Notes under the pieces: model-generated
Told to the model about the DNA's origin: nothing
Seen by the model: only the letters and a program-made list of their open reading frames with translations
Database searches by the model: none
Made by a program: the position numbers and the translations under genes
Source of the DNA: Chrysochromulina tobinii
Taxonomy: Eukaryota
NCBI GenBank assembly: GCA_001275005.1
Contig: JWZX01003220.1
Location: forward strand, 1 to 41,538
DNA length: 41,538 nucleotides
Direction: 5' to 3'
In this document: positions 1 through 24,635 of the stretch, in pieces
Numbering within the stretch: position 1 is the first letter of the stretch
Layout of the letters: each line of letters opens with the position of its first letter

Positions 1-2
1 TC

Positions 3-667: not shown

Positions 668-1079
668 TGGGTGTGTACGTGCTATCAGTATCAGTATCAG
701 TATCACATGCTATTAGTATCACGCTTTGAGGCTCTCGAAAATTGAAATTCTTGAAAATTGAACACTCGCTGCCAGCCGCATGGCAGGGCGAGATACGGTC
801 GAGTGAGGTGATCAACAGGTGGACTCGATTTGCACAAGATGCCCTGGGACGGGACAAAAGCCAAGGCTGCCTCGCACATACCTGAGAATCCCACCAACGG
901 CGGAGCGCCGCCCACACCACCGCGGCCCTAGGGGCCCTTGCATCCGGTTGGATGGGCCGTGTCGTAGGTGGCCGGAGCGGAGTAGTGAGTGGAGAAGTGC
1001 TGCGCTCCTGTGACTAGCCCCCCATTCGTGCCATTCAAAACGCATCCTGACGCGTCTGGCTGCGATTGAGACCATCCGA

Positions 1080-2607
1080 TTATGACTGGATGCTGCTGCT
1101 CTCGACCCACGTGTACTTGGTGAGCGGCGGCGGTGTGGTAAACATCAGGTAGTCGGCCAGCGGGAGCACGGCGCTACCAACGCGTGCCTGGCTCACCGCA
1201 GCGGCACGCTCGCGATCTTCAGGCTTTGAACCAATGACAGGCGCGCCCCCGTCGCCCGGCACGGGCGCATACCGCAGCTGCAAGATGTACTCGCCAAAGT
1301 TGAGACGCCCGCCGGGACCACCAGCAATCGACGGGTCTCTCACCTGCATGCAATCAGTGAGGCATGCATGCAATCAGAGAGGCGAGCAGCAATCGACGGG
1401 TCTCTCACCTGCATGCAGCGCAACTCGTGACCATCCGCGTCAAACGGCGGTCATCAGCGGTCATCAGAGGTCATCAGCGGTCATCGGCGGTCGAACGGCG
1501 GTCGAACGGCGGTCATCAGCGGTCATCAGCGGTCATCAGCGGTCATCACACCAGCGTGCGAGTCGAGGGATGGCTCACCGTATCCGATGGGAGCGGGTTG
1601 AGCATGACCGACGCGACGGAGGCGAGGCCGCCGGGTAGCTGGCGCGCGCATCGCGCGGGTACGCCGCAGCCGAATTTCACATGGTCGGAGCCCACGAGGC
1701 CGACGAGAAGCCCCTCCGGGTTGTTGCGGCACCAGGCGGCCGACGCAGAGCCCATGCTCTCATCCCATAAGACTCGTCCCGAGAAGAAGTTGCGAAAGCT
1801 CATGTCCTCGTCGAGCATCTGGCCGGTGATCGTCGTGCGCAGGATGCCCATCCGCTGGTGCATCTGGTAACTCGGCTTCACGATGTATGCCACGTACTCC
1901 TTGAATGCAGTCGTCGCTGCGAATGCCGAGAAGCCCTCAGGGTCGGTCACGTAGCTGCGCAGCGTCTCAGGCGGCAGCGCAGGCAGGCCGCCCACCTCAA
2001 CACGGCTCAGGTCCTCCGAGTCCACGTTGAGCGCGAGCAGCGGGATGCCGAGCTCGCGGCATGCACGAAAGACGGGAGCATAGGCGGCGAACGGCCAGAA
2101 CCAGCGCTTTCGCCACTCAGTGGCCTCCTCGAGCTCCACCTCGCCGATCCGGCCCGCCACGAAGCTGTCGAGTGCCGGCTGGAAGCGGCGCTGCACCGCC
2201 TCGAGCCCGACGGCCATGGGTAGGCTGCCGCGTTCCTTGTGCAACTCACGGATGACTGCGGACTGTAGCAGGTGGTCGGCAGCGCTGTTGTGGTGCTCTC
2301 CGAGGAATACGGCGCGACACTGCTGCAGCTGCTTGACGATGGTACCCGCGGTAAGAGGCTTGACTGTCGGCGAAAGAGTCTTTGTCGAGTCGGGCACGAC
2401 ACTGTAGATTTCGGCCGAACGTAGTGTGACGCCATCTTCAGTTAGAAGCAGTGTGGCTGCGCTGGTAGGCAGGACGCCAGAGAGGCCAGCGGCGGCGAAC
2501 GCGCCGGCAAGTGCTCTGCGCGAGACGTGGCTGCAATGCTGGTTGCCATGCTGCGGTGTATGCAATGCGGCGACCCCAATACTCAGAAGGAGCACGAGCA
2601 TCGGCAT
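1080..2607 (-). CDS. ChaN/PhuW (Tiki-superfamily haem-uptake-like) protein, probably in the thylakoid lumen; exons 2607-1579 and 1343-1080
   Basis: Motifs AVFLGEHH, MAVGLEAVQRRFQPALDSF, WDESM, VGSDHV and the C-terminal PLADYLMF. N-terminal signal peptide MPMLVLLLSIGVAAL, then SRRALAGAFAAA (Tat-like). A phase-0 GT..AG splice joins the two ORFs. Confidence 0.85.
1344..1578 (-). other. Spliceosomal intron made of two stacked units (1578-1409 and 1408-1344)
   Basis: GTGAGC donor at 1578, a TGATGACCGC tandem array, an internal CAG|GTGAGA at 1409/1408, and the final CAG acceptor at 1344. Removal restores the frame. Confidence 0.85.
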
Positions 2608-2806
2608 CCGCAAATTTCGCAGGCGATTCTGGAAGTTTCTTGTCGGTGTGTGAGGGGCCTGATCACATGTGATCATTGGCTGATTGTGTCTTTGACGGGC
2701 TCTAATTGGCCTCTGATTGCGTCTTCGACTATGCGATGCACGTGAGCACTGTTGCCCACGTGCACCGGAGTGAGCCTCCGAGTGCTGCTGCTCAAGTCTA
2801 GGAATT

Positions 2807-3901
2807 CTACGCAGAGCAAGCTCGGACGCGCGCTTCGAGAGCAGCGACCTCATCGGTCGTGTCTACCATCGGGTACACGGCCGCGAAGATGCTCGCAGAG
2901 CCGAGGACGACGCACACGTGCCAAATGGCCACATGAAACTCGAGGCTGCGGATGGCCCAAGGCAGCAGTCCACCTATGTAGAAGACGCCCGAGATCCAGA
3001 TGAGATCCATTTGCCACGTGTGCAGCGTCTCGCGCACCATGGCGATTGAGGCGTTGTACGTGAGTAAGGGACCGAAGACAAACGACACGACGTGCAGGGC
3101 GATGTTGTCGAGCACTCCGCCGGAGGCCTTCGCGAGGATCGTAGCCAGCATGAGGATCCAGAGCACCGCGGACGATCGCCACGCGCACGAAAAGACGAGG
3201 ACGGGCGTCGCAGAGCCCGCAATCAACACACAGATCCCAATGTGATCGAGCAGCGCCAAGCGATCGACATCCAACCAGAGCTTCAATCGGGCGAGCCTCT
3301 GGCCCACGTTGAAGGCGGCGGAGCAGATGAGCATCGTGAGCAGGGACATCCCATACACGAAAATCACTGCAGCGACCAAGATGGGAAAGCCTTCGCTCAG
3401 ATCGGTGTGCCGCCAGACAGCGAGCCACTGCTTGACGGCACCGACCACGGTGGCAACAAAGGCGACAGCGCCGAGGGCCAGCCCAACGCCATGGACGATG
3501 GCGTCGGTGAGAAGCTCTCTACGGCTGTACAGCCGCACTTCGGGATACCATGGGATCTGCTGATCGAACGGATAGCGCAGATGGCCAAGGAGGGACGGCA
3601 CCGATTCGGAGCCGCTGGCATCGGACCGATCCGGGAATTCCTCAAGGAGGATCTCGGTAGCGAGCCGATCCTCGGCACGCTGCTGGGAATTCTCGACGGC
3701 CCGGCGAGCCATCTCCGCCTCGGTCTCTGCAAGCCTGATGGCCTCCGCTAAACTCATTGGCGACTTGCCGCGTTTGATCGCCTCCATGTAGTCACCGCGC
3801 GCATCATCAAACAACTTCTTGAGGTCCGCGGAGCTGAGCACGTCCCGTTCCATCTTCTCCATTTTGTCCATGATCGACATAGCTGCTTCAGCGTACGACA
3901 T
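2807..3901 (-). CDS. PAQR / haemolysin-III family 7-TM protein
   Basis: ELLTDAIVHGVG, LDHIGICVLIAGSATP and FHVAIWHVCVVLG match the HlyIII/PAQR motifs. About 7 hydrophobic segments. First ATG at 3901. Confidence 0.88.
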   Translation of the reverse strand: MSYAEAAMSIMDKMEKMERDVLSSADLKKLFDDARGDYMEAIKRGKSPMSLAEAIRLAETEAEMARRAVENSQQRAEDRLATEILLEEFPDRSDASGSESVPSLLGHLRYPFDQQIPWYPEVRLYSRRELLTDAIVHGVGLALGAVAFVATVVGAVKQWLAVWRHTDLSEGFPILVAAVIFVYGMSLLTMLICSAAFNVGQRLARLKLWLDVDRLALLDHIGICVLIAGSATPVLVFSCAWRSSAVLWILMLATILAKASGGVLDNIALHVVSFVFGPLLTYNASIAMVRETLHTWQMDLIWISGVFYIGGLLPWAIRSLEFHVAIWHVCVVLGSASIFAAVYPMVDTTDEVAALEARVRACSA

Positions 3902-4108
3902 CGTCCACACCTGGGCGCTGCCGAGGAGCTCTCGCTCCCTCCGACGGCTCGGGCATCCGCCCAAGTTTCAGCATCTGGAGGGAAAATTGGCAAAAAAAAG
4001 ATCTGCGGTCGCCGTCAGTCTATGACGGAAAAGTTCGTGTGTATTCACACATGTGTTCTTTATGAACACTGTTGGCGGAATGCGCGGAAAGGGTCTTCGC
4101 GGAAAGTC

Positions 4109-4888
4109 ATGTCCGCCCGAGGCGATGCAATTGCCCTCGCTGCATGCGCCGCAGCTGGCGCCGTGGCATTTGCCATCGGCGTTTTTATGTCGGAAAGGCT
4201 CTCGTCTTCTAAGTCCGTGGACGTCCGCTTGGACCCACACAGCAGGTCTTGGAAGCCCATGCCCACAACAGCCGAAGCGCCAACGGCTTGCTGTGCACCG
4301 AATGAGGAGGAGGTGCCGGAGATGCCGAAACGCATGCGTGAGGCGCTCGTTCGCAAGGGGGAGACCACCGAGTCTGCGTTCAAGCCACGGTGTGCAACCG
4401 AATCGCCCAAGGCCTGTTGTGACAAGGCTTGTGCACCTGCTTGTACTGATCACCACGAGGTGCCGGAGATGCCAAAACGCATGCGTGATGCTCATGCCCG
4501 CCAATTGGCGACAAATTGGGAAGGATTCCTCGAGCGCGTACCTGGGAAGGAGTCCACGAAGGCGGAGCCCTCGAAAGCGGAGCATGTCAAGCCGCAGCTG
4601 GGCTCCGTGATGGCGCTGGCGAAGGACACGGGCAGGCCGCGGGACGAGTGCAGGGCAGCGCTCATCGCCAGCCAGAACGATTACGACCGGGCCAAGGCGA
4701 GCCTGATGCCAGACGCCATCCTGAGCCAGGCGCCCAGCGGCGTGGCCATTGAGGGTGTGTACGAGCCGGCCGAGAAATTCGGTGGTGGTCGCCCTGGATG
4801 GATCTTCAAGTCCGGTCCGCACGGCCTAGGTTATTACAAGCACAAGGACCCTCTCCCAGCTTGCATGCCGGCGGCAAAGGGCGGCTGA
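4109..4888 (+). CDS. Uncharacterised protein: N-terminal TM helix, duplicated Cys-flanked EVPEMPKRMR repeat, EF-Ts-N/UBA-like domain and C-terminal GLGYY motif
   Basis: AIALAACAAAGAVAFAIGVF is hydrophobic. VMALAKDTGRPRDECRAALIASQNDYDRAKASL resembles the EF-Ts N-terminal UBA-like three-helix unit. C-terminal KFGGGRPGWIFKSGPHGLGYY. The alternative start at 4022 is less likely. Confidence 0.7.
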   Translation: MSARGDAIALAACAAAGAVAFAIGVFMSERLSSSKSVDVRLDPHSRSWKPMPTTAEAPTACCAPNEEEVPEMPKRMREALVRKGETTESAFKPRCATESPKACCDKACAPACTDHHEVPEMPKRMRDAHARQLATNWEGFLERVPGKESTKAEPSKAEHVKPQLGSVMALAKDTGRPRDECRAALIASQNDYDRAKASLMPDAILSQAPSGVAIEGVYEPAEKFGGGRPGWIFKSGPHGLGYYKHKDPLPACMPAAKGG

Positions 4889-5541
4889 TGCTAAGCGCAG
4901 CCTTGCCGACATCGTCGAGGCTGCTCGTTCGTGGATCTTCGATGGCGATTGCGAAGAGCCGAGGGACGCGGCTCACAAGCTCAACGAGTTCGTTGGGCTT
5001 GGGTACTGCGACCTCGGACAAATGACGGCGTCACCCCCAAAGGCCGTTGCGTTGCATGCGCAGGCCAAGGGTGCCGCCCGATGAGATCTTCTCTCGCACC
5101 ACGGTAGGCTCACAAAACGCATCCCCACGCACAATCCAGTGCCCCCAAACCCGGCCGTCGAGCCCCTCGTGGTCTCGTTTCTCAATTCCTTCTTCTGGTA
5201 TGAATCAGATATTTGTACGGGTTGAGCCGCGGCCGCGACGGACTCGTCGTCTTCGTGCTGCGCGTACCACTCGGCACGTCACTCGTCAGGACCACACGCA
5301 GTGGGGATTTATTGCTCAGTCGCCGGAGCATTTCCATTTGGATTTGCAGTCTTGCGCATCCTTCATATCCTTCTATCCGACCGGACTGTGAGGACCCAGA
5401 TCACGATTCGTCTGTTCCAGGCGTTTACGTGGTCGGGGGTGCGTATTCGGGTAAGTTGGTTGAGCTGACCTTTCTTCTAACTTGTTCGCAGTCTTCATAC
5501 GCCCGGAGCCCCGCGGACGCGAAGCCGACGAGCGGCCTAAT

Positions 5542-6962
5542 ATGCCTCCGGAGGTCACGATCTCGTGGGCCGAGCCGCGCAAGAGCTCGCCGTACACGCT
5601 CGCGCGGTCGTCCATCAAGGATGATGACGGCGAGATGCCGCTCGAACCGGGCTCACTCTCGAACTCGGACAAGTCGGACAGGTCTTCAAGCGAGCCGCTA
5701 TCCATGCCGACCCTGCTGCAGCGGCTCATGTGGCGGCACTCGGTGCTCTTCAACACGGCGCAAGAGCTCACACTGCTGCTGCTTATCGGCATGGGGACGA
5801 CCGCGGTCGTCTACTCAGTCGACAAGTCCATCGATGTCATGCTCAAATGGCGCATGAACACGCGGCTCTCATGGCACGTCGCCGGCGGCTTCCTGCCAGA
5901 GTACCTCGTGTGGATAGGCTCGTCGATGCTGCTGTGCACTCTCTCGGCTGCCTGCGTCCATTTGATCGGGCCTTGCGCCGCGGGCTCGGGCATCCCGCTG
6001 ATGAAGTGCGTGCTCTCGGGCGCCCAGATGGATGATTACATCTCGTTTCGCACCCTCGTGGCGAAAGCGACCTCGCTCGCCTTCGCATATTCGGGCGGGC
6101 TCTCGGTCGGCAAGGAGGGCCCGTTTGTGCACATGGCCTCGTGCGTCGCGCACCAGATGTGCCAGCTGCCCATCTTCCGCCGCGTCGCCCAGAACGAGCA
6201 CCTGCATCGACAGGTGCTCGCCGCCGCCTGCGCCGCCGGTGTCTCCGCCGCCTTCGGCTCGCCTGTAGGTGGTGTGCTTTTCTCGATCGAGGTCACATCG
6301 ACGTACTACTCGATCTCGCACCTGTGGAAGGCATTCTTCACCGCCGTTTGCGGCACTCTCTTCGTTCGCCTCGTCCGTGCCTACGGATCGCTAGCGAACT
6401 TCCGTATCACCGACTTCTCGGTGCAGGTGCGCTGCCCGTCCCTGGGCTTGGCTTCTGTTACGTGCTGCTCGGCCTCGGATGCATGCTGATCGTACGCATG
6501 CTGACGGTGCGCTTGCTTCTCTGCCTTCGCAGGACGCCGACACCGGCCTTTCGGCAAGTCTCCTCAGTGGGGAAATCTACGCCTTCCTGCTGCTCGGAGT
6601 ACTGTGCGGGGTGCTCGGCGCCGCATTCGTGCATGCAACGGCCTCGACCATACTGCTGGTGCGCAAGCTGCGCGTCTCGCTCAGCAAGCCGCAAGGTCGC
6701 GCCGGTGCCAGCTGCAGCGGCGGCGGCAGCGGCGGCGGCGGCAGCGGCAGCGGCAGCGGCGGCAGCGGCGGCAGCGGCAGCGGCAGCGGCGGCGGCGTTG
6801 CCAGTGCATCTGGAGGTTCCAACGGCAAGGGAACCGCGCACGGCCCCGTGCCGCTCACGCCTGCGAGTGCATCGCCAGCTGGCGCCCACGGCAGCGCGTC
6901 AACGGCCGCGCCGCCTGTGCTCTCGTTCTCGGAGCGATGGTCCTACGAAACCGTCAACGGCA

Positions 6963-7014
<52 letters not shown>

Positions 7015-9220
7015 CGGATGCGGCGGATGCGCAGCCGAGTGCGGCGGGTGCAGCTGCTCCGATGGCCGTATGAGATGCGTCTTCGCGGCGCTGATCTCGC
7101 GCTATGGGTTCGTCAACGTCGTCGCCTTCGTCACCGCGATGTTCTCCTTCCCGTTCGACTTCTTCTCCTCCGAGCCCGAGGAAGTCACCTCTGAGCTCTT
7201 TGGCGCGGCGCCCTTCGACTTCAAGGCACGCTGGTCCATCACTCCTTGATTGCGTCTTGATTGCGTCTGATGGCCCCAGTTGATGCCCTCTGATTGCCTC
7301 CCTCATCAGGCACGCTGGTCCAATCCATCACTCCTGGTCAACCTCTGCATCTACACCGTGTGCAAGTTCTTCTTCACCTCCGTGGCCGCCGGCTGCCCCT
7401 TGGGCGTCGGCATCTTCACACCCACGTTCCTCATAGGCGCCGCCACTGGGCGGGCCTTCGGTGAAGCTCTCAATGCGCTGCTGGTCCTCACCTCGTCGTC
7501 CTTCCAGGTGACCGCTGAAGACCGCTGATGACCACTGATGACCGCTGATGACCGCTGATGACCGCTGATGACCGCTGATGACCACTGATGACCGCTGATG
7601 ACCGCCGATGACCGCCGATGACCACTGATGACCGCTGATGACCGCTGATGACCGCTGATGACCACTGATGGCCACTGACTGATGGCCACTCTCATTGCGC
7701 GGCTTCCAGGTGACCGCGGGGGCGTACGCGGTGGTTGGCTCCGCGGCCATGGCGGCCGGCGTCACCCGCACCATCTCATGCGCCGTGATGGTCTTTGAGC
7801 TCACTGGACAACTCAACCACCTGCTGCCGGTGCTCGTGGCGGTGCTGGCCGCGTACGGGACTGGCAACGCGTTCAACAAGTCGTACTACGACACCATGCT
7901 CGAGCTCAACAATTATCCGTTCTTCAGGCCGCCGGACCTGACAGTCCCCTCCTCGCAGGCGGCTCAGGATGTGATGGACACGTCCCTCGTCGGGCTGGCG
8001 CGCGTGTGCACCTACCTCGATGTCCACCTCCTACTCACCACGTCCAGTGACTTCGAGTTTGCAGTCGTGGATGCTCTGGACAGCCAACGGCTGCTGGGCA
8101 CGGTGACCCGCGCTACGCTCGCGCGGCTGCTCGATGCGCACATGCTGAGCGGCGAGCGCGCGCGCCGCCATCGGATGCCAGGCCTGGGGACCGTCCTAGG
8201 GAGTCGATTTCGTCAACAGTTTCGTCGGATGCCCGGCCTGGGGAGTCGGTGCGGCAGTATGGGCAGCCTGCTGCGCGGCAGCCTCGCCAACGGTCTGAGT
8301 CGCTTTCTCTCCCCGTCTGCGGGAGTTTCGTCAGTTGGTGTCTCCATCGGAGTCGCCTACGAAGCGACGGAGCGCGCACGCCTCTCGTCGGGCGCCTCCG
8401 ATGGCGCTTCGGACTGTGCGTCACACGACGCCGTCTCCTTGGAGCCCTCAGCAGACCATCAGACGACCATGCACCTGCCCGACCGCGCGCTGCGTGAGGC
8501 GCTCGCTGGAGCCGTTTCCGAGGATACGCTGTCGGACACTCAAAGCCCGGCACCGACGGCGGCTGCGGCTGGCGATCCCGTCGCCGGACGCACGAGCGGA
8601 GGCAGTCCGAGCGGCGGCGGCACCGGTAACGGTAGCAGAGGCACCGGCGAGGCCGAGGCCGACGACGACCGTGAGTGGCGCTGCGCGCGTGGCAGCGGCG
8701 TGCTATGCGGACCTCACGCGGGAAAGTCGCTCGGAGAGCGGCAGCGGCAGGCAGGGGTACGTCGGGCGCACCCATCGGCCTCGCCCAGCATGCACATGCT
8801 CACCACAGCGCTCTCGCCCCCACAGATACGGGCGCACCCATCGGCTCCTCAGCCTCGCCCAGCATGCATGTGCTCACTACGGCGCTCCTTCCCCTCCCCC
8901 CACAGGTACCCATGGGCTCGGTGTATTCAGAGCTCGAGCTCGCCTTGCTTCGTCAACCCGTGGACTTCGGAATGGAAGCCGCGGACAGCGACACATGCGC
9001 CGGCGCCGCCGACAGGCTCGGCGGCGGCGCTGAGGGCGCGCCCGGGGTCCCCACGCTTCCTAGCGGTGGTCTCGTGCAGTGCGCGCCGAACATCTGCACG
9101 GCGGGCGCTCCGCTCAGCCAGGTGCACATGCAGTTCTCGGTGCTCGGGCTCGAGCGCACCTACGTCACGTACGCCGGGCGCCTGCTCGGCGTCATACGCC
9201 GCTCGCAGCTCGGGCGGTGA
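5542..9220 (+). CDS. CLC: CLC-family chloride channel with two CBS domains; exons 5542-6426, 6533-7225, 7310-7507, 7710-8756 and 8906-9220 (the linker splice is less certain)
   Basis: Motifs GSGIP, GKEGP, GGVLFSIEVTS, GIFTP, YAVVGSAAMAAGVT, VFELTGQ and SYYD. CBS2 reads VHMQFSVLGLERTYVTYAGRLLGVI. All four splices are phase 0 and in frame. Confidence 0.92.
6427..6532 (+). other. GT-AG intron 1 of CLC (106 bp)
   Basis: CAG|GTGCGC donor, CTGAC branch-like site, pyrimidine tract and CGCAG acceptor. Removal joins the two ORFs in frame. Confidence 0.88.
7226..7309 (+). other. GC-AG intron 2 of CLC (84 bp), TGATTGCGTC/CCCTCATCAG family
   Basis: AAG|GCACGC donor, in-frame TGA at 7247-7249, ends CCCTCATCAG. 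The 5' end duplicates the downstream exon start. Confidence 0.85.
7508..7709 (+). other. GT-AG intron 3 of CLC (202 bp), TGATGACCRC tandem-repeat family
   Basis: Roughly 15 copies of a 10-nt unit, with CTTCCAG|GTGACCGC at both junctions. Removal restores the frame. Confidence 0.9.
8757..8905 (+). other. Intron 4 of CLC; two related units in tandem (8757-8825 and about 8832-8905)
   Basis: GTACGT donor in phase 0. Both units contain GGGCGCACCCATCGGC..CCTCGCCCAGCATGCA..GCTCAC and end CCCCCACAG. The 8905 acceptor opens the CBS2 frame. Confidence 0.65.
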
Positions 9221-9450
9221 TCCTGAGAGATGACCTGTAAACTCTATACTCTTAGTATTTAATACGAGTTAGGTATATTGAAGGGAGGTAGTTAACGAGG
9301 TACGCATGAAGTCAATTAGGGAGGCACGAATTAGTGGAACAAGCGCGAAGGCACTCTCACACGACAGAGATCGACGAAGGTGCGGATCGAGCCAGAGAGC
9401 CTGAAGAACAGAGCGATCCACCCAGAACAAGCACTGCGTTGTGAGCCTAC

Positions 9451-12400
9451 CTACCCCGTGGCCGCCATCTCAAACACGTACGGCGTCGGCTTCTTGAAGA
9501 AACGACGCACCTCCTCGGCCGATAGCATTTGATTGGGCGAGCCGCGCAAGAGCAGCGTCGCGCCGCGTGTCGTCTTCTCGACGCCAAACTGCATGATGCC
9601 CACGATGAGCAGCACGAGCATATCGACGCGCCGCCAGATCGGGTCGGCTTGCCCCTTTCTCTGCTTCCGGTGCGCCGCGTCCAGCCAAGCTTGGTAGGCA
9701 GCGGGCCCCACCTCAAGAAGAGCGCCGAAGAACTCGCCGGGGAACTCGAAGCCGTGCCGGCGCATCTCTTTATCGGTGGGCAGCGCCTTGATGAACGCAA
9801 TGCGCACAATCGCCTCGAGGAAACCTTCGAATGAGAGCTGCATCAACGTCCCCAGCTGGCTCTTGCGCGACGTCTCGTCAATCGTGGCCATCCGGCTATG
9901 CGAGAAGATGACGAAGACGGTTCGAACCGTAAGCTCCTTGGTCATGCCTATGTCGCGGATAAACGAGGACCACTCTTGTACGCCGAGCAAGTCGGTCACT
10001 CCAAACTGGTCTGCTGCCCCTGAGCCATACGCGGCGTACACATTGAACACGTTGAGCAATGAGGCCTTGTGGTGGTCGAGGACGGCGCACACCTCGCGAC
10101 GGTAGCAGTTCGAACGCCGGAAGGCGTCCGCATCGTGCAAGATACTCCCCGCATGGGGGAGCCGCCCCAGGTTGAGCATATCTTCAAACATCTCATTCAC
10201 ACAGCGCGGCATGTCCTCGATCTCCTGGTTGTCGATGGCGGCGCGCACGAGGACCTCGATCAACTCGGAGCGCGTCAACCGTGTCTTCGAGTTCCACGCC
10301 TTCTGTGACTTCGACAGCTGCGACTCATTCACCGAGATCCAAAGCAAATCCCACCCGTCCTCTCCGCGCGGCCTGGCGTGGCGTGCGGTGGGCACATAAA
10401 AGCGCTCGTTGTGATCCTCTTGGTCGTGAAAACGACGCACGAGAAACTCCTTCGAAAAAGCTTCTTCGTGCCCACTCTCTTGCATGATGAGGCCCGCCTC
10501 CTCGAGCATCAGCGAATAGCCGGCGTGCGTCAAGCCCTGCACAAATTGCGTCACCTCCGCCTCGATGCACGAGTAGAAGTCGTGGATACGCAGCAGCATC
10601 GGGTACCAGTGCTCGAGTGCGTCGCGGATCTTCGTACACGTGGTTGCGCTCATCGACTTGAGGCCAAAGGAGCGCCGCTCCATGTTGTTGACCAGCGCCT
10701 GGCCGCCCGATGTATTCATCCAATCGCTCGCGAACGCCGCCTTGAGGGCACTTGGCGTGTTCACGTAGTCCTTGGAATCGCACGCGAACTTGCCTCTCTT
10801 GCGCGGAGCCCAGCACGTAGCGTCCAGCCAGCTCAGATCGGCGTTGGGATCACTGCCGCCGACGCTCGAGGCGGCCCAGAAGTTGGGAAGCTCGCCGCCG
10901 CTGTCGATGTTCCTCATCATCTCCTCGACTGCGGGATCCAACATCTCACCCAAATCTTCATCTTCGCCTCGACCGCCGCCTCCGCCGCTGCCGCCGCCGC
11001 CTCCGACCCCGCCGCCTCCAGATGCCTTGTCCATACCGCCGGCTCTGCCACCATCTTCTTCCAGCCCTCTACCTCCGCCGCCTCCGCCACCACACCCGCC
11101 GCTTCCGAGTCCACTGCCGCTCTTGCCGCCGGTTCCTTCGCCGCCCTTGCCACCGCCTAGCCCACCTCCCTCGCCTCCGCCACCCTTGCCACCGCCACCA
11201 TCACCTCCACACCCCACGCCGCCGCCTCCACCGCCTCCCCCACTTGTACCACCGCCGCCTTCGCCACCGCCACCGATCCTGCGGCCGCCCTTGTCACCAC
11301 CGCCCCCGGCACCGCCTCCTCCGTCGCCCCCACCACCATCACCTCCTCCTCCTCCGCGAGTGCCGCCGCCACCGCCACGCTTGCCAGCACTCGCGAAGGC
11401 ACCGGAGAGCAAATTGAAGTCAACATCGTCTTCATCCTCGTCCTCCTCGTCATTGCTGGCTACAGCCGCACTGAACTCTGAGACGCTGAATCGTAATTGC
11501 GCAGTCGCGGGGGGGGCGCCATCGGCGCTCCCGCTCCTTTCTCCGTCGCCACCCTGACGCCGGATTCGGTTGGCGTCGCGGCTGGATGCCACCCCCGAGA
11601 GCTTCCCACGCATGGCCTCATGCTCCGCCTCACTGGCGGCCGCGGCGGCCGAGGCGGCAGCAGCGTTGCGATCGAGGGCGCGGGTCTCCCGCGCATATGC
11701 GCGCCAGCTCTGGTCGTCATCGCGCGACTCATTCGAGTGGAAAGCACCAAGCGCCACATGCGAGTCGGGCAGGAGGCAGTGTAATCGACTCGCTTCATTG
11801 CGCCCATCATGGTGCCTCGGACTGTGCCGGCGCACTGTGGGCAGCGCATGCATGCCTTCGGAGAACTCGAGCCCAGTCCCACGCGTCAGCTCGCCCTCGT
11901 CGTTGCGCAGCTTGAAGCTTGCCGCCGGCCGGCCTCCCGCAAACGATGCCCGCGCCGAGCTCGCCATCACATCGGGGCGGATGCCCCACACCCCGTCCGG
12001 ATGTGCGCGCGCGGAGGCCTTGAGCGTGCCGTTCATGAAGTAGCGCGAGCGCGAGAGCTCCTGCAGTTGCACCTGAAAGTTGAGGACTGAGACGTCCGAC
12101 TCTGCATCCTGCTGTACGCTCTTGAGAGCCAGCTGGCACTTGGCACGCAGCTGATGGTGTGAGCGGTCGAAGAGACGCGATGAGTCGAAGACGGGCTGTG
12201 GATGCTCATGACCGCGCCACGTCGCGTCTGCCTTGCTCGTCAGGGGCGTCTGCGCCCACATGGGAGGGCGCGCGGGTCAATCTCGGTGGTAATCTCGGTG
12301 GTAATCTCGGTGGCAATCTCGGTGGCAATCTCGGTGGCAACCCATGGTAATCCATGCCAATCAGTGCGGCACTTACAGGCGGTCGTTTGAATTGGACTGT

Positions 12401-13246
12401 GCCAATCACGAGCTTCTTGACCTTCTGCCACTTGTGGGCCAAGGGCGAGGCATGGCTTGACGATGTGGTAGTTGCACGGTCTTCGTGTGACATCTTTCGT
12501 GCAGACAAACTCTTTTGGCGTATCTTGCTTTGGCGCTGCAGGTCCGCGGAGGGTATGTCGAGCTCGTGTGCATCTGCAAACCTGACTGGACCACCAATCG
12601 CAACCTCACCCAACCGCGGACGCGCCAACACCTTGGTCACGTGCTTGCTCTTCCGAGCAAGGATTTCCTTGAGCTCGTCCAACTCGGAGCCAGGACCCCG
12701 CACGCGGTGCAAGGCGTTGGCTTGAGTCCCCGTCAAGAAGGTGTCAATAGGTTCGGTCGCGGCTTGCTTCGCACAGCCCAGTCGAAAACCAATCCTCCGC
12801 CACTTGCAACGTGCAGCCTCGAGGGCAGCCTCTCGTGCCGCCTCGCTTTGACGCTTCACGCTAGGCAGGAAGGGCTTGAGCATTTCTGGGGATCCGTGTG
12901 TGGTCCGTGGGCTACACACGGATCCGTCGTCCAGGGATCCGCGTGTGCCTCCGAAGAAACGACCATCAAGGGGGTCCTCCCAATCAAATGAGTCTTGCTT
13001 CTTGATTTGCACCTTCCGTGGGCGTGCCGTCAGGGCTATGCGCTCCCAATCACGGTCCGGCTCGGAAGCAACGCCTGTACCCGATAGCGACGTCTTTGAG
13101 GAGCGGCGAGCTGCCGGGTTCCGTGGGGAAGGCGGATAGCGAAGGCTCGTAGAAGGTGACGATGGCGGCCAGAAGGGATCCTCACGCAGGGGTAGAGATC
13201 GTGGCACCACGCGGGACTGCACGGTCGGCTGGCCCACGGACCACAT
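9451..13246 (-). CDS. Large uncharacterised protein with a Gly-rich linker and a C-terminal EF-hand-like helical region; exons 13246-12377 and 12249-9451
   Basis: Two long ORFs joined in phase 0 by a GTAAGT..CAG intron. Repeated helical motifs LTRSELIEVLVRAA, LGVQEWSSFIRDIG and LSFEGFLEAIVRIA. Function not recognised. Confidence 0.75.
12250..12376 (-). other. GT-AG intron (127 bp) containing a 12-nt GATTRCCACCGA tandem repeat
   Basis: Consensus GTAAGT donor at 12376, CTGATT near the 5' end, five repeat copies and a GCAG acceptor at 12250. Removal gives an in-frame join. Confidence 0.88.
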
Positions 13247-13439
13247 ACGATTTTGCGTGTGGGCTGGGCTACAAGTCGTGTCGCCGGCTCGACTCGCACT
13301 CACGGGTCGCGGTTTTGAACGTTATTTTTGGTGACGACTTGTCATGCGGCGTCGTTCGAGTAACGTCTTTTTAACTTTGAAAAGGCAATGCATGCTCGTC
13401 GGAAAGGACACCCGGTGGGGGGCAATTGCTGCGTGTGCG

Positions 13440-15281
13440 TCACAACTCCTCTTTCAATCTTGCTGTCGGTGTCACCACCGCAGCGTGCTGCGGCACATCC
13501 ATGGGCAAATCATACCCCGCTGCCTCGCCTGCTCCGTGCTCGTCTCCATCGTCCTCATTCGCAGGCCGTTCAGCCTGGGGCCGTTCAGGCGCCTGTGGCT
13601 TCGGCTGTGCGTCCTCCGCCTGCACCTGAGCCTGCACCGTCGCAAAAGGCGGGGTCACTGAATGCCCGCCCTCGCCGCCAAGCGTCTCCTGCACGAGTGA
13701 GCCGAGCTGCTCCTCTGTAGCCTCGAGCTGACGCTGCAGCGCCGACTTCCTCTCGTCATCCGATGGCAGCCTGCCGCCGCCCGCACCGCCCGCGCCGTCC
13801 TCGCCACCGCCCTCGCCACCGCCCTCGCCACCGCCCTCGCCGCCCTCGCCACCGCCCCCGCCCTCGTCGTCGGAGCTGCCGGCGCGCCTAGCTGCCTCGG
13901 TCGCCTCGAGCGCGGCGAGCTGCTGGCGTAAGACCTCCACTTTTTGCTGCAACTGCCGCATCTGCTCGGTGGTACGTTGCTCCTGCTCCTTGTTTCGCAG
14001 CTCTCGCTCCTCAAACTCCGCAAGGCGAGTCTGCATGGAGTGCCACAACTCCTGCTTCTGATCAAAGTCCTCCCGCAGCTTCTTCGTCTCACTCAGCTGC
14101 AAGGCAAACTCGGCGCGCACCTCAGCGGCCTTCGTCTCAGCCACCACCTTGGCGGCGCCCACCGCGCGCTGCGCGCGCGCCTCAGCCTCCCGAAGGGCTT
14201 CCTCGAGCCTCGCTTCCCTCAGCTGCGCCTCATTCCATCGCGCCTCGGACTCGCGACGAAGCCGATCGATCTCTTCATTGTACTCGGTGCGCATGCGCTC
14301 GCGCTCCTCGCGCAGCTGGCGCTGGAAGTCATCCATGCGCATCCCGAAGCTCTCTGCGAGCGCCACCGCCATCATTGTCGCGTCTGGTGGATGGTAGTGG
14401 ACCGCCATGTGCGGAAGCGCCGCGACCGCCGACCGCAGCTCGTCGTACTTGTCGCGGCTCGTGAGCACCACGGTGCCTGTCGCATTGGGCGCGTGCGCAA
14501 AGAACTCGCGCATAATGTCCTCCCGAAAGAAGCGTCGCTGCTCATCGTCTTCGGCACGGTCGTCCTTGGTGCCGACGAGGATCACGTTGGCCCACTTCTC
14601 CTCACCTACGAAGCCCTTGTCCACGATCGTGGCGACGACCTGCGCTCCGAGCTTGACGCGCCCGTCGGAGATCGGATTGGTCACGAGCACGCCGTCGATC
14701 GGTGGCAGCAGCCGCGCCTCGAGCATTGAGATCAGCTTCGTCGGTGTCACGTCCTTATCACCGACGCCCGGCGTGTCCAGCAGCTCGACCGGGTGGCCGT
14801 TGATCGGCAGCCCTACGTATGACATGATCTGCTTGGTGACGCCGCGAGCAGAGCGACCGGCCTCGGCCTCGCCGCTGCGCGTCGGGTCGCGCAGCGCATT
14901 GATCATCGTGCTCTTGCCGTCACCCACCTCACCAACGATGAGCAGCCGTTTGAGAGGCAACGCTGGATCCTCGGGCTTCAGCGCCCCGAAATAATGCTCG
15001 AAGAATAGCTTGCCGTGTTTGTGCACGTGGTCTTTGAGGTGCGCCTTTAGCTGGCTGTGGTTCGACTCGGGGATCAGCCACGCAACCACGGGCGCCAAGA
15101 AAAGTATGGTGAGCGCCACGCGTGCCGTGCGGCTCATCCGTGCCCAAAGCCGTTGCACAGCACGGTACACGACGGCAAGCGCCGCTTGGATCACGAAGCG
15201 GCCAGTGATGATGACGACCAGGCTGATCAGCCATATGATGAGCTGTTGCGGGTGGGACGGCACGAGACCCACGAGCACCAT
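13440..15281 (-). CDS. Membrane-anchored TRAFAC GTPase (AIG1/GIMAP/Toc34-like) with a C-terminal coiled coil
   Basis: G1 GEVGDGKST, G2 GVT, G3 DTPG, G4 TKDD. Two N-terminal hydrophobic helices and a long E/R/Q-rich coiled coil. Confidence 0.85.
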   Translation of the reverse strand: MVLVGLVPSHPQQLIIWLISLVVIITGRFVIQAALAVVYRAVQRLWARMSRTARVALTILFLAPVVAWLIPESNHSQLKAHLKDHVHKHGKLFFEHYFGALKPEDPALPLKRLLIVGEVGDGKSTMINALRDPTRSGEAEAGRSARGVTKQIMSYVGLPINGHPVELLDTPGVGDKDVTPTKLISMLEARLLPPIDGVLVTNPISDGRVKLGAQVVATIVDKGFVGEEKWANVILVGTKDDRAEDDEQRRFFREDIMREFFAHAPNATGTVVLTSRDKYDELRSAVAALPHMAVHYHPPDATMMAVALAESFGMRMDDFQRQLREERERMRTEYNEEIDRLRRESEARWNEAQLREARLEEALREAEARAQRAVGAAKVVAETKAAEVRAEFALQLSETKKLREDFDQKQELWHSMQTRLAEFEERELRNKEQEQRTTEQMRQLQQKVEVLRQQLAALEATEAARRAGSSDDEGGGGGEGGEGGGEGGGEGGGEDGAGGAGGGRLPSDDERKSALQRQLEATEEQLGSLVQETLGGEGGHSVTPPFATVQAQVQAEDAQPKPQAPERPQAERPANEDDGDEHGAGEAAGYDLPMDVPQHAAVVTPTARLKEEL

Positions 15282-15403
15282 TGGGGTGGATTGATGGCGA
15301 TTTCACACCTCGAAACCCCATGACAAAACTGCACACATCCACGGAAAGGGCCACCGCAGGATGTTAGCAGATTTTTTGTGCGCGTGTGAATCTATTTTCG
15401 AAG

Positions 15404-17131
15404 ATGGAGACGGGCTTCATGTGGCCTGACCTCACACGGCATCATCACCCACAAGGCTTCGAAAACATGAAGGTCAAGGACGTTCTGGCCTGGTCCTCCG
15501 AGAAGGCCACCCACGTAGTGACCTGGTCCTCCGAGAAGGCCACCCACGTAGTGACCTGGTCCTCCCAACACGTCTCCGATGCTCTTTGCGTGAGCATCAA
15601 CGTTTCGTGCAGGAAGAAACCAGAGCTCTTTGACCAGCCGGGTGGGGTCGTCTTCTTCTGCATACTGGCGTTTTCCAATGTGTTTGCACTATTAGTTCTC
15701 ATCTCCGTAGTCGGCGGCTTTGTCACGAGGCTTTTGGATCCGGCGGCAGCATTCGCACGCACACTTCGTGACCCGCGCGCACACGCTTTCGCCAATATGC
15801 AGCGCGAGGTACTCGGCAAGACGTCCCTAACCGTGCTGGTGCCATGCTACCTGCCCAACGAGCAGCTGATCGTGAAGAGCACGATCGCACACCTGATCCA
15901 CAACCTCGAGTACAGCTTCCCGTTCCGCCTCATCGTTTGCTACAACACGCCCTACCCGATCGCCTTCGAGGACGAGCTGCGCGAGCTCGACGGGTACGTG
16001 TACGCCAACGGCCGGTCCGTGCAGATTCTCAAGGTGGAAGGCTCCTCTTCCAAGGCTGAGAATCTCAACTGCGCGCTGCTCTCCGTGGACACCGAGTATG
16101 TCGCCCTGTACGACGCCGACCACCACCCTGACGCGCACTCGCTGCTCATTGCAAGTGCGCACATGGCGGCGCGCGGCGTCGCGTGCGTGCAAGGATCGAC
16201 GTACCTTCGATCGTTGCCCAACTTCATGGCCGTCTACATCAACGCCGAGTTCTTCGTCACCCACTTTGTCTTCTTTCCTGCCATGCAGTTCCTCACGTCC
16301 TTCGGAATCTTTGGCGGCTCGAATGCGCTCTGGAGGACCGCCATCCTCAAAGCGTACCAGTTTCGTCATGACGTGCAGACTGAGGATATCGACGTGTCGA
16401 TCCGGTCCTCGCTCGATGGGCGCGTCAAGATCTCTTTTTGCCCCGAGTGTCGCTCGGGTGAGCTGCCGCCACGTACCTTCAACGACCTCTACCGACAACG
16501 GCTGCGCTGGGCTCTAGGGTGGGATCAGGTGACGCTGCAACACATGCGCAGCATTGGGAGCAGCACCGAGCTCAACTGCGCCGAAAAGGCTGGCATGTAT
16601 TACCTGCTGCCGCTCCGATGGGCTCTTCTCTTGTCCGGTGTGGCCAATGCACTCGTCGCGCCGATAGTCGCCTCCGCTTGGGCGAATGGTGTCGGCGGCG
16701 AGCTTGGTGGTCCGATTGAGACTTGCTACGCCTTCTCGTTCACCACGTACGCCACGCTTTTCGCTGTCGCGGCCATCAACGCCATCCTCCACGAGCCACG
16801 GCAGCGCTGGCCGGCAATTATCGCCTTCCAATTGACCGGCGCCGTATATATTGGCTGGAACCTCGCGCTGTACTTCATCTCGCTCATCAAGATTTGCACG
16901 GGCGCGGATAGCGAGTGGGTCGTCACCACGCGCGCGCCCGACGTTCCTTCCAGGGCGCGCACCGCTGGGCTCGCTTATTTGCACCCGAGTGATACATGCG
17001 CATCAAGCCCTCGGCCTGAGCTGAGCACGCCCATGCAGGCAGCGTTCGCGATGTCGTGTGAGAAGGAGCTCGTAGAAAAGTACAACGCGGCGCGTGGCGA
17101 AGTGTCGGACCCGCCCATCCCCATGCTTTAG
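15404..17131 (+). CDS. Processive GT2 beta-glycan synthase (cellulose-synthase-like), intronless
   Basis: LVPCYLPNE, SKAENLN, YDAD (DxD), GGSNALWR, TED and QRLRW (QxxRW). One N-terminal and several C-terminal TM helices. A 33-bp tandem duplication encodes WSSEKATHVVT. Confidence 0.9.
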   Translation: METGFMWPDLTRHHHPQGFENMKVKDVLAWSSEKATHVVTWSSEKATHVVTWSSQHVSDALCVSINVSCRKKPELFDQPGGVVFFCILAFSNVFALLVLISVVGGFVTRLLDPAAAFARTLRDPRAHAFANMQREVLGKTSLTVLVPCYLPNEQLIVKSTIAHLIHNLEYSFPFRLIVCYNTPYPIAFEDELRELDGYVYANGRSVQILKVEGSSSKAENLNCALLSVDTEYVALYDADHHPDAHSLLIASAHMAARGVACVQGSTYLRSLPNFMAVYINAEFFVTHFVFFPAMQFLTSFGIFGGSNALWRTAILKAYQFRHDVQTEDIDVSIRSSLDGRVKISFCPECRSGELPPRTFNDLYRQRLRWALGWDQVTLQHMRSIGSSTELNCAEKAGMYYLLPLRWALLLSGVANALVAPIVASAWANGVGGELGGPIETCYAFSFTTYATLFAVAAINAILHEPRQRWPAIIAFQLTGAVYIGWNLALYFISLIKICTGADSEWVVTTRAPDVPSRARTAGLAYLHPSDTCASSPRPELSTPMQAAFAMSCEKELVEKYNAARGEVSDPPIPML

Positions 17132-17379
17132 CATCGGCCTCTCGGCCTCGATCGGCACCATCGGGTCGACCGGCGTCAAGACTTTCTGAGAACGAACAAG
17201 AACGTTAGCGTTTTGGGTGATTTTCATTATCTCGTAAGAGTGACGTATTGACCGGACGGAAACGCCCCAACCGCGAACCCCGGTCACGGGTCAGTGGCAA
17301 GTAGTACACGGACTTAAATCGAACCAGAGACAGACTCTTCATCTACGAGAACTTAGTTTTCTCGCGTGCCCCAAAGAAC

Positions 17380-19947
17380 TTATTGGACGAATTTCTCGGC
17401 ATAGTAGAGCGCTGCTGTGGCCTCCGGTGCGCTCATGGCGAAGCGGGCGCGAACACGTGCGCTGGGATAGATGCCTTGAGGATACAGCAGCTTCAACCGT
17501 ACTTTGGGCACTCCGGGCGTTGGGGACCCCTTCGGCTGTCCGGGTGCGCCGCGCGCACCCCCCTTGGCTGCCTGCGGACTCGCGAGCGCATTCTCAGCCG
17601 CGGGCGGTTCGCAGAGCCCTACCAACTGCTGCCAGGGCGGCGGCGTTGGCTCCTGGGGCGACGGCGTTTGCGGGAACTGACACTGCTGCGATGGCGGCTG
17701 CCACTGTTGCTGCCATTGCTGCGGCTGCGGTTGCGGCTGCGGCTGCGGCTGCTGCTGCTGCCACTGCTGCTGCTGCTGCTGCTGCTGCACCCGCAGGCGC
17801 TCCTTTTGTAGTGCCTGCTTGGCTGCGGCCTTCAACTGCTGCTGCTGCTGCTGCTGCTGCTGGCGCTGCTGCTGGCGTTCGGCTGCTTGGCGAGAAAGCT
17901 CCGCGGCCTTCAACTGCTGCGGCTGCTGCTGGAGCTGGAGCTGCTGCTGCTGCCACTGCTGCTGCTGCTGCTGCTGGAGCTGCTGCTGCTGCTGGAGCTG
18001 CTGCTGCTGCTGGAGCTGCTGCTGCTGGAGCTGCTGCTGCTGGAGCTGCTGCTGCTGCCACTGCTGCTGCTGCTGCTGCTGCTGGAGCTGCTGCTGCTGC
18101 TGCCACTGCTGCTGCTGCTGCCACTGCTGCTGCTGCTGCCACTGCTGCTGCTGCGACTGCTGCTGCTGGTGCTGGTGCTCCGCCGCCCTCTGACGTAGCA
18201 GTGCCTCCTTCTCGAGCACAGCGCGCTGCTTCTGCTCGAGCAGCACCCGCTGGCGATACTCTTGTAGAGCCTGCTTGGCTGCGGCCTTCTCTCGACGCTC
18301 CACCTCCTTCTCGACGCCCTTGAAGAGCCGGCCGAGCACGGCGCGCACCTCGAGCTCGATGCGGCGCTCTTCCGCAAGCCGCAGCTTCTCGGCCGCCTGC
18401 CAGTGACGAAACTCGAGTTGCGCGCGTCTCGCCGCCTCGGCCGCGCTTCGCTGCGCCTCGAGAGCCCGCATGCGCTCCACCGCGAGCGCCCGCGCGAGCT
18501 CCTGCTCGTGTGCCAGCTCGACTCGGCGGACCAGCTGGTCGAGGGTGCGACTCACCTGATGAGGGATGCAATCAGACGCAATCAGACGCAATCAGACGCA
18601 ATCAGACGCAATCAGACGCAATCAGACGCAATCAAGGGTACGACTCACCTCAAGGGTGCGAAGCGCCTCCTCGGACAGCGGCGGCAGCTTGGGCTTCGGC
18701 GGCAGGTTGAGGTTGAAACCGGCCCCGGGAAACGGCGTGGGTACGTGCACGACGATCTGCAGCTTCATGCCCGGGTAGGCGTTCGGAGGCAAGGTGATCT
18801 CAAACCGTCGCGGGGAGGGTGTGCCCGGCTCGAGTACAGCGATCCGTTGGCCGGGCACCATACCCGGCGTCACGGTGACGATCAGCTGCTTCGTCTGCAT
18901 GCTTGGGAGTTGGATGGGCTCCACGAGACGCTTGATGAGGGATTCCACCACAGCACGCACTTCGCGATCCACGCGCTTGTCGCATCTATCGAGGCGCGTC
19001 CGCAGCGCTGAGCGTTGGAAAGGCGTTCGGCCGCCGTCTACGCCGGCGGCGCCGGCAGCACGGGCAGCACCGGTGATGCACGCACCATCCGACGCAGATG
19101 GATCTCCGGATCTCGACGGATCTCCCAGGCCGAGCCGTACGAGCGCCGCGTCGAGCGCCACCGCAGCTGGCGCTGCGCCGTGCGACGACTCGTCGGCGGG
19201 CCCGAGGCCGTCCGTGAGAGTCATGGCACAACGCTTACAAAGCGAGCGCGATTCCGCCAGTGTCGACAACGTTGGCCTTCGGAACTGGCGATCGGCGTCG
19301 AACGGTAGCGCGTCGCCGCAGAAACAGCAGATCACTTCCGCCTTGCGGCGGCTCCCACTGCGCCGGGGTTGCGACGACACCGCAGACGAGATCAGCCCCT
19401 CTGTGTGGCAAGTCAGCGCAGCTGCGGAGGCGCTGCTTCCTCCAGCCGTAGCTGTCCGAGGCAGGCGCGCGGGCTCCTCCGCGCGCTCGTCGCCGCCTTC
19501 CTGGGTGGTACGGCGTCGCTTTGGCGCAGGTTCCACCTCGTCCATCTCGGGTGGTCGCGCAACCAGCTCTGCCAACGTTTCCTTCGTGTGGTGGCGGGTG
19601 GTGCCAGGCGCACGATGGAACCAGGCCTCACCTTCGTCGCTGTCGTTGCCGCCATCATAACAGTCATGATTGTTGACGTCCTTGGCGGAGTGTTTGTAGC
19701 CGGGCTGACGGCTCTTCCACTCGTCGCGCGCTTGCTCCTGTTCGCGGTTTATCTGGCGCTTGAGAGCTTGCTGTGCATCCGGCCGGCGCCACTCCTCCTT
19801 AGCGAGCGCGAATGCCTGCGAGGATGTTAGTGACGAGTCGGCCTGGGAAAGTGCCGAGCGTCGCTCCTGCACGAAGCGATTGTATGCCGAGAGCGGGATC
19901 GAGTCGTTCGAGCTCGAGTTTGCGGCCGTTTTGTACGAAAGTGGCAT
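17380..19947 (-). CDS. Putative nuclear protein: HMG-box-like domain, Cys4 cluster, coiled coil and long poly-Q/W tract; exons 19947-18649 and 18555-17380
   Basis: PLSAYNRFVQERR..AFALAKEEWRR is HMG-box-like. NLS PKRRR, CCFC..CKRC and a paired VTPGMVPGQRI/LPPNAYPGMKL motif. A 93-bp intron joins the ORFs in phase 0. Confidence 0.75.
18556..18648 (-). other. GT-AG intron (93 bp), TGATTGCGTC/CCCTCATCAG family
   Basis: GAG|GTGAGT donor, six TGATTGCGTC units with an in-frame stop, ends ATCCCTCATCAG. The 5' end duplicates the downstream exon start. Confidence 0.9.
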
Positions 19948-20053
19948 CGCCACACTTTTGTTGTGGGGCTGTGCCAAGGGGCGTGGCTGTATGCGCTCCG
20001 GATGAGCAAAACTTGACGCAAACTTGGCAGGCAGTTACGTCATCTGGGGCAAG

Positions 20054-22516: not shown

Positions 22517-22586
<70 letters not shown>

Positions 22587-24620: not shown

Positions 24621-24635
24621 TGCGCGAGAGCGAAC

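Follow-up and report, generated by a model that had tools for sequence, protein, structure and literature searches.

Introns of the haptophyte Chrysochromulina tobinii, built from duplicated host-gene sequence and shared repeat filler, probably continue to arise by the copying of existing introns in DNA repair

We analyzed a 41,538-nt stretch of Chrysochromulina tobinii DNA (contig JWZX01003220.1; hence, the window) and related metagenome loci and found that the repeat-built introns of unrelated genes have a main feature that the initial annotation of the window had missed: each array is bracketed by a duplicated piece of the host gene itself, one copy on either side. Such introns consist of a duplicated 8- to 48-nt piece of the host gene with 20 to 190 nt of filler between the copies, and we propose, with confidence evenly balanced between acceptance and rejection, that they arise by repair of staggered breaks, during which filler is copied from existing introns.

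All five arrays of the initial annotation were recovered in their places, whereas resampling the window 30 times with a Markov model yielded none, and the repeats lie in haptophyte introns. They comprise two A-type 10-mer arrays (positions 1447 to 1548, 10 copies; 7509 to 7678, 17 copies), two B-type arrays (7245 to 7297; 18568 to 18634, 6.7 copies), and a 12-mer array (12278 to 12340, 5.2 copies). The annotation's view that introns of this kind are common to unrelated genes was confirmed by similar intron sequences in such genes. It had also separated A and B as two families; their repeat units are real, but the two form one 10-mer mosaic, with A arrays joined to a B end in DNA contigs and both unit types within single introns. 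The common start assigned to family B (CCTTGA) is partly the end of an exon duplication and not the end of an element. The 12-mer array, described as related, is likewise real, but its unit lacks CTGAT. A further filler, family C, is nonrepetitive and shows the same duplication footprint as the array families. Arrays within one locus are slightly more similar than those of different loci (0.055 versus 0.034; 14 of 1,000 permutations), and the summed contig depth of array bins (17,800 to 35,200, versus about 37 elsewhere), a rough measure only, points to a high copy number. Searches of viral contigs recovered no match to family B, two matches to a degenerate array in unrelated sequence (54% and 36% GC), which we took as chance, and one to family C at 69% GC, probably host DNA. 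Rfam searches over positions 1 to 20000 gave no match at the gathering score, and the sub-threshold matches were mostly to a CAG repeat; a C/D-box snoRNA at 7614 to 7670 was rejected (a weak match, 19 bits versus 45), and the idea that the repeat units resemble the core of box C/D or of the hammerhead gained no support.

The anatomy can be followed in the CLC chloride channel gene (5542 to 9220, plus strand), which has four introns. (i) Intron 1 (6427 to 6532), with a decayed 15-mer repeat containing CTGAT/CTGAC, is probably an old member of the repeat introns. (ii) Intron 2 (7226 to 7309; 84 nt, GC-AG) has a mixed 10/11-mer filler and a CCCTCATCAG acceptor, with the A of CTGAT at -17; the exon at 7310 to 7335 is copied, with a 5-nt deletion, as 7226 to 7246, and this copy provides the donor. 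(iii) Intron 3 (7508 to 7709; 202 nt) has 187 nt of A-type filler, the phase of which matches the end of a 15-nt duplication (7501 to 7515 and 7703 to 7717) that spans AG/GT and gives both splice sites. (iv) Intron 4 (8751 to 8905) is composed of two tandem 74-nt family C units of the GTGCTCACCAC...CCCCACAG type, its donor being at 8751 or 8757, with the frame kept either way. Upon removal of 7226 to 7309 and 7508 to 7709, the protein aligns unbroken at both junctions to 10 homologs, one of which shows a gap at the second junction, and retention of these two introns leads to stops.

On the minus strand, assigned from PF04187 homologs, the intron of a ChaN-domain gene is made of two units. Unit 1 (1409 to 1578) has a GT donor, the A-type array at 1447 to 1548, and a TGCATGCAG end and is without a long duplication; unit 2 (1344 to 1408; 65 nt) is a 31-nt duplication (1417 to 1387 and 1352 to 1322, spanning AG/GT) plus 34 nt of filler, placed at the acceptor of unit 1, and one DNA contig spans 1322 to 1416 with zero differences. 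With the 1409 acceptor alone, the frame stops at 365 aa, so unit 2 must be removed too; the existence and array of this intron had been correctly annotated, but its true span is 1578 to 1344. The 12-mer array lies in a 127-nt GT-AG intron (12250 to 12376, minus strand) that has no duplication and a single CTGAT, 112 nt from the acceptor; its removal gives a 1101-aa frame, for which no Pfam match was found. In the B-type intron at 18556 to 18648 (minus strand; 93 nt, CCCTCATCAG acceptor), which recurs in loci L015 and L112, the exon at 18555 to 18539 is copied as 18648 to 18632 with two mismatches, and the copy provides the GT donor; removal gives 824 aa, and retention gives a stop at residue 441. 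The label of an HMG gene given to its host amounts to a resemblance, as no Pfam HMG box was found in 18649 to 19947 at an E value of 0.001. Degenerate CTGATTG repeats at 2659 to 2725 (plus strand), between two minus-strand genes, showed no duplication and are possibly unrelated promoter boxes. Removal preserved frame continuity in 16 of 20 cases, and among the matches listed, RNA contigs lose their fit at 7238, 7703, and 8905, which is what spliced transcripts should do; splicing of these introns is predicted from protein homology.

Across 124 metagenome loci, which were chosen by the B end, so that the counts are not genome-wide, the first 8 to 43 nt of the next exon are copied at the intron start for 43 of 65 unique family B acceptors (versus 2.0% of 1277 mismatched pairs as the null), with lengths spread evenly over this range; the other 22 sites have no duplication. 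Twenty-four of the 43 duplicates have no mismatch and are therefore young. A first census of duplication events (201 rows), inflated by array self-matches, was reduced by filtering to 80 events, some nested or coding repeats still among them. By a rough classification, the filler supplies the acceptor in 34 of these, the duplicate straddles AG/G in 23 (mostly without a family acceptor), and neither applies in 23. GT or GC comes next in 21 of 25 acceptors found by a G-free pattern. The footprint is common to unrelated fillers (the 10-mer mosaic, family C, and a 5-mer array), and a test for a discrete element found no end-to-end similarity, with the 5' boundary, length, and unit mix all varying. 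Microhomology of at least 2 nt was present at 15 of 27 duplicate-end junctions of the filler (versus 6.4%) and at 5 of 9 of the other junctions (versus 8.2%); 10 of the 27 had none at all. Direct copies of at least 9 nt from the flanks occurred in 8 of 60 cases (versus 3.3%), several of them explained by nested units, and inverted flank copies in 1 of 60 (versus 1.7%); thus, local templating is not general, although the polymorphic intron of L073 ends with its own upstream exon copied in inverted orientation and the array of L024 resembles its own target.

The mobile unit had been annotated as essentially an array of branch points plus an acceptor, which would favor splicing wherever it lands in sense orientation. 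In B introns, the A of CTGAT lies 17 nt from the acceptor, a distance partly built into the search pattern, and this A is a candidate branch point at a compatible position. However, a discrete unit of this kind was not supported: no more than the final one or two CTGAT repeats sit at branch-point distance, the duplicated target provides the donor, family C has the same outcome with no array, and some copies are antisense. The five named arrays are indeed all in sense orientation, and a strong sense bias was obtained from Pfam matches (sense in 11 of 43, antisense in 1 of 43), a codon model (sense in 50 of 57), and array orientation (97 co-oriented versus 9 opposite), but the rule is not absolute, given three antisense copies. 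Among the nine opposite arrays, three are pattern artifacts of the palindromic B end, one is a coding repeat, and three, judged by eye, lie in introns of a convergent gene and in its sense orientation; of the seven antisense codon-model calls, three are explained by a nearby stop or the next intron, two are ambiguous or have a sense Pfam match, and two are real. The antisense copies, whose hosts' strand was assigned in all three cases from frame length and the codon model, with no Pfam match, are two 78-nt B units within a 589-aa frame (L067; also in L123), an 88-nt copy located at a stop codon (L016), and an in-frame copy of 66 nt (L025); they occur where the protein is spared. The L025 duplicate also contains AG/GC on the opposite strand. 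A strong sense bias with surviving antisense copies points to strand-blind insertion followed by selection.

Comparison of 19 chosen allele pairs yielded 23 distinct indels of at least 55 nt, among which six sites, not polarized as gain or loss, have the intron in one allele and lack it, in frame, in another; at one of these, the uninterrupted coding allele lies inside a PHD finger. Units added at existing donors or acceptors and differences in array length are common between alleles. The same units recur across assemblies that are 1 to 3% apart, and assemblies of apparently one strain can differ by a tandem unit (L003 versus L026; L036 versus L043).

Under the repair model, a staggered break in the host gene would be repaired with duplication of 8 to 48 nt; the repair polymerase would prime on an existing intron via 2 to 7 nt of microhomology, copy repeat filler from it, and then re-anneal upstream. 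Insertion would be blind to strand and position, and selection would keep duplicates that start at or straddle (A)G/G(T or C) and have sense filler with a branch site, whether or not it brings its own acceptor. Each new intron would add a template, so that the system would feed itself, and recombination between the two copies could delete or multiply a unit. The analysis shows the duplication-filler anatomy with its variable length, microhomology at both ends of the filler, alleles with and without the intron, the occurrence of tandem units at a single site, and rare antisense copies. The duplications, the several modes of splice-site recruitment, the junction microhomology, the footprint common to unrelated fillers, the surviving antisense copies, the L073 and L024 cases, and the slightly greater similarity of arrays within a locus favor this model, and staggered breaks yielding duplications with templated inserts are described in the available text of PMC5730883. 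Against it, the 10 of 27 junctions lack microhomology, local templating is not general, the six polymorphisms are unpolarized, and strand-blind repair predicts intergenic arrays, of which the window has at most one. More tentatively still, we envisage a self-templating intron factory without a transposon, in which the host's repair machinery, or else a reverse transcriptase that it has borrowed, would take existing introns as templates, so that introns breed introns; each would be a unit of variable copy number (0 to 4 per site) between long direct repeats, with precise gain and loss in living populations and perhaps recursive removal across zero-length exons.

A fixed end next to the duplicate and a ragged opposite end are the classic signature of retroposition. 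The fixed ends seen here (CCCTCATCAG and CCCCACAG, abutting the duplicate) fit that process and weigh against repair, as does the antisense L067 copy, which retains the exact end without any splicing benefit. We also weighed target-primed retroposition, in which a non-LTR reverse transcriptase would copy a short RNA, either an excised intron with its AG as the end or an antisense transcript with a repeat tail that pairs at the nick; the product would have one fixed end, a repeat end that is truncated or slipped, and a target duplication of variable length. Acceptor ends fixed in three families, duplications varying from 8 to 48 nt, and the concentration of copies in genes agree with this, and non-LTR-derived introners are reported for Amoebophrya and one Pavlovales family (PMC12130899). 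The SINE-like combination of a duplication of variable length, a single fixed end opposite a ragged one, and junction microhomology was found, for acceptor-ended fillers only, whereas derivation from a known structured RNA gained no Rfam support over positions 1 to 20000. Nevertheless, 46 of the 80 census fillers (a rough count) have no acceptor end next to the duplicate, and microhomology at both junctions and the locally templated cases also weigh against retroposition, which we regard as possible but the less probable course. It is unlikely that old or ordinary introns were colonized by a minisatellite, with later tandem duplications at splice sites hidden by splicing: unit additions, allelic array-length differences, and arrays without duplication (ChaN unit 1, the 12376-12250 intron, and the 22 of 65 B sites) would suit such a history, but the six sites with an uninterrupted coding allele and the mismatch-free 24 of 43 duplicates do not. 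A conventional introner, i.e., a nonautonomous DNA transposon whose body is formed by the repeats, is very improbable; introners are present in marine Chrysochromulina metagenome-assembled genomes (MAGs) (10.1101/2022.06.06.494994), and a carried acceptor with a donor from the duplication is reported for Symbiodinium and Polarella classes 4/5, but the 8- to 43-nt duplication spread, the inconstant element length and 5' end, and the lack of a terminal inverted repeat beyond a 5- to 6-nt palindrome at the B end contradict it. A hairpin model was also rejected, as four window introns fold like shuffles (z from -1.3 to 1.7). Assembly artifact around short repeats can be dismissed almost entirely, for while assemblies that seem to be of one strain differ by a tandem unit, 30- to 48-nt duplications that an assembler could collapse are present at four of the six empty alleles, and L095 could be partly spliced RNA, intron removal restores conserved proteins, units recur in assemblies 1 to 3% apart, and the 80-nt L073 intron, almost free of duplication, is absent from two other assemblies.

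Short tandem repeats were reportedly noted in Emiliania huxleyi introns by Read et al. in 2013. Our introns resemble those of that haptophyte in being repeat rich with many GC donors, but the available text of the sources (PMC4028052; 10.1101/283549) gives one small intron family with 10-bp terminal direct repeats and no duplication-filler mechanism or polymorphism. In the accessible parts of 10.1101/2020.10.14.339549, introners of Symbiodinium, Polarella glacialis (classes 4/5, 6/8/10, and 14), and Aureococcus have fixed 3- to 8-nt duplications; they share with ours a carried acceptor combined with a duplication-derived donor, or else a duplicated AGG(T or C) that yields both sites, and several recruitment modes within one genome, and they differ in these short duplications and, in Symbiodinium, inverted repeats, as against 8 to 48 nt, a variable body, and mosaic tandem repeats here. 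Repeated intron families are also described for the haptophyte Chrysochromulina sp. TARA (10.1101/2022.06.06.494994; PMC9860276), with 80 to 98% in genes for most MAGs; the figured example, without inverted repeats, has a 4-bp duplication, carries a donor, and co-opts an acceptor, unlike our introns, in a comparison by description and not by sequence. The C. tobinii entry in the available portion of PMC12130899 shows 0 introner families. As in the account of AGGT tandem duplication in PMC3443670, a duplicated AG/GT piece gives both sites in CLC intron 3, ChaN unit 2, and L040/L073, but here shared filler lies between the copies and often supplies the acceptor. In Daphnia pulex, neointrons that arise from staggered double-strand breaks are, as PMC4202315 outlines them, similarly polymorphic, with direct repeats and repeated insertion rounds, but their insert sources are mostly unknown and not shared families, whereas a few genome-wide motifs serve as filler here. 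End-joining tandem duplications (PMC5730883, as far as its text describes them) also combine variable duplication, microhomology, and an occasional templated insert, which is cis-templated there and apparently mostly ectopic, from one repeat pool, here. Among openly readable papers, we found no description of a duplication-filler intron anatomy in haptophytes.

How new introns originate is a long-standing question for which recent surveys favor transposons. AGGT duplication and break repair with filler, proposed separately, appear joined and running at scale in one alga, and if the self-templating reading is true, introner pipelines that require end-to-end similarity would overlook such introns. 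Gene models and assemblies of these algae will mishandle the units. The alga grows in mixed culture, and the existence of alleles with and without the intron, together with the survival of antisense copies, makes the mechanism testable. New introns are probably still forming here through the copying of existing ones in DNA repair and not by an ordinary transposon.

The window is eukaryotic and gene-dense (~63% GC), its nearest named homologues are in Prymnesium parvum (72%), Prymnesium sp., and Emiliania huxleyi, and its sequence is present in mixed-culture and freshwater sequencing runs; together these make the source a haptophyte, perhaps one of Chrysochromulina type. The repeat arrays reported in the initial annotation were confirmed at their coordinates and exceed chance (5 in the window versus 0 in 30 resamples). 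Removal of 7226-7309 and 7508-7709 from the CLC chloride channel gene (5542..9220, plus strand) leaves a protein colinear with 10 homologues. On the minus strand, the whole of 1578-1344 must go for an intact ChaN frame, and excision of 18648-18556 and of 12376-12250 from two other genes gives 824 and 1101 aa; the former gene had been labeled HMG, and Pfam finds no HMG box in it. Matches of RNA contigs end at 7238, 7703, and 8905 as in spliced RNA, a hint of splicing. A probable intron of a TCR/CXC gene (24693-24956) lacks a repeat array and ends in GATCAG. Elsewhere in the window we observed long CAG repeats encoding polyglutamine tracts (17717-18179 and 22520-22586); an AT-richer intergenic region with dispersed direct repeats of 23 to 27 nt and longer (36870-37320), possibly a decayed mobile element; and a 54/64-nt minisatellite running to the window end (41147-41538), possibly subtelomeric or a contig-breaking satellite.

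Missed earlier was that copies of host sequence flank four repeat-bearing units of the window: CLC intron 2 (26 nt, with a 5-nt deletion), CLC intron 3 (15 nt), the second ChaN unit (31 nt), and the 18648 intron (17 nt, 2 mismatches). Scanning metagenomes with the fixed acceptor end of family B (10/11-mer arrays) recovered at least 124 loci in 46 clusters, the window included, and the matches listed held 244 anchors (146 terminal, 65 unique). Among these matches, the exon start is copied upstream at 43 of the 65 unique anchors, against a null of 2.0% of 1277 mismatched pairs; the copies span 8 to 43 nt, 24 of the 43 are mismatch-free, and their donors are GT (35), GC (5), or other (3). At clean-flank sites among the matches listed, an AG precedes the first donor in 16/20 and the frame is kept after removal in 16/20, while the remaining 4 take their acceptor from the filler alone.

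The arrays of families A (10-mers) and B are real; their proposed separateness did not hold, as the units form a continuum in which A arrays terminate in the B end, and A, B, and further fillers are one superfamily. Family C, a nonrepetitive filler also present in CLC intron 4 (8751..8905), is bracketed alike (22 co-oriented versus 2 opposite among the matches listed), as is a 5-mer array. One CAAGT/CAAG-like 5-mer array (locus L036, near 2232 in element orientation) is itself a duplication-bracketed intron; (CAAGT)n or (CAAG)n runs also lie directly upstream of minus-strand genes in the window (20050-20078, 23342-23370, and 40717-40751). Family C also occurs, together with a bracketed array, at 420-660 of L127, a contig from a viral collection (69% GC) that would be either host contamination or an integrated virus. 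In a rough census filtered to 80 events among the matches listed, the filler supplies the acceptor in 34, the duplicate straddles AG|G in 23, and 23 show neither mode, several of them at existing donors; duplications measure 14 to 48 nt (a lower cutoff being imposed) and fillers 18 to 187 nt. In 26 of 33 B calls among the matches listed, the last CTGAT (TTGAT counted) places an A at -17, fitting a putative branch point; copies further upstream need not function.

Comparison of 19 chosen allele pairs among the matches listed yielded 23 distinct indels of at least 55 nt, six of which set a whole unit (137, 86, 87, 80, 84, and 92 nt) against an uninterrupted coding allele; the others are array-length changes or units added at existing splice sites. 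The 86-nt unit interrupts a PHD finger. Two assemblies lack the 80-nt unit; it shows hardly any duplication and terminates in an inverted copy of its own upstream exon. Counting against activity, four empty alleles could reflect assembler collapse or recombination loss, L095 could be partly spliced RNA, and tandem-unit number varies between same-strain assemblies. The intron-generating system is real and active-looking. At L073 (1475-1760) and L004 (1383-1530), two to four units stand in tandem per site, each AG end abutting the next donor; these are candidates for recursive splicing.

We give about an even chance to a repair origin, with duplication and copied filler arising at a staggered break. 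The break would fall in a host gene, priming would occur on an existing intron, slipped copying would generate the filler, re-annealing would take place upstream, and selection would keep spliceable products. Staggered-break end joining, in excerpts of PMC5730883, yields such duplications, microhomology, and now and then templated inserts. Among the matches listed, microhomology to the repeat phase occurs at one junction in 15/27 cases (null, 6.4%; none in 10/27) and at the other in 5/9 (null, 8.2%); local templating of filler is rare overall, and same-locus filler similarity is slight. Two plain tandem duplications without filler (608-667 and 15489-15565; 26 and 33 nt) may stem from the same process; one of them lies between genes, and the other keeps the frame of a glycosyltransferase gene. 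Retroposition, which we think less likely, accounts equally well for the fixed ends, but not for fillers that end inside an array or that copy their flanks.

Intronic copies had been described as always in sense. The bias is strong: a codon model (97/107 correct, leave-one-gene-out) called 50/57 sense among the matches listed. At 43 listed sites whose downstream sequence was clean for 200 nt, the longest sense frame had a Pfam match in 11 (~8 genes), and the longest antisense frame had one at a single site, ~600 nt away; further listed arrays follow the seed orientation in 97 cases and oppose it in 9, in 110 kb. Three cases, however, look truly antisense and harmless: two B units of 78 nt each, read through within a 589-aa open reading frame (L067, likewise L123), an 88-nt copy located at a stop codon (L016), and a 66-nt copy that keeps the frame (L025); the host strand of these three has no Pfam support. 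Such copies suggest that the sense bias is at least partly selection. The L067 (320-475) and L123 (200-357) units are translated as a 26-residue repeat in the protein tail, apparently intron filler become coding sequence. Polymorphism, antisense copies, and acceptor-less fillers together weigh against a single discrete element.

In excerpts of PMC12130899, C. tobinii is listed with 0 introner families, and one Emiliania family, of 5 members, has direct repeats of 10 bp. Excerpts of other studies review AGGT duplication and break repair as two distinct routes (PMC3443670) and report Daphnia neointrons with direct repeats and mostly unknown sources (PMC4202315); further context is found in parts of PMC4580454, PMC4028052, 10.1101/283549, PMC2784329, and PMC8469720. 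Introner target duplications, as excerpted from 10.1101/2020.10.14.339549, 10.1101/2022.06.06.494994, and PMC11282704, are fixed at 3 to 8 nt, whereas those of our units vary from 8 to 48 nt. The duplication-filler introns are introner-like in their working, but by the tests applied they are neither a discrete element nor a DNA transposon.
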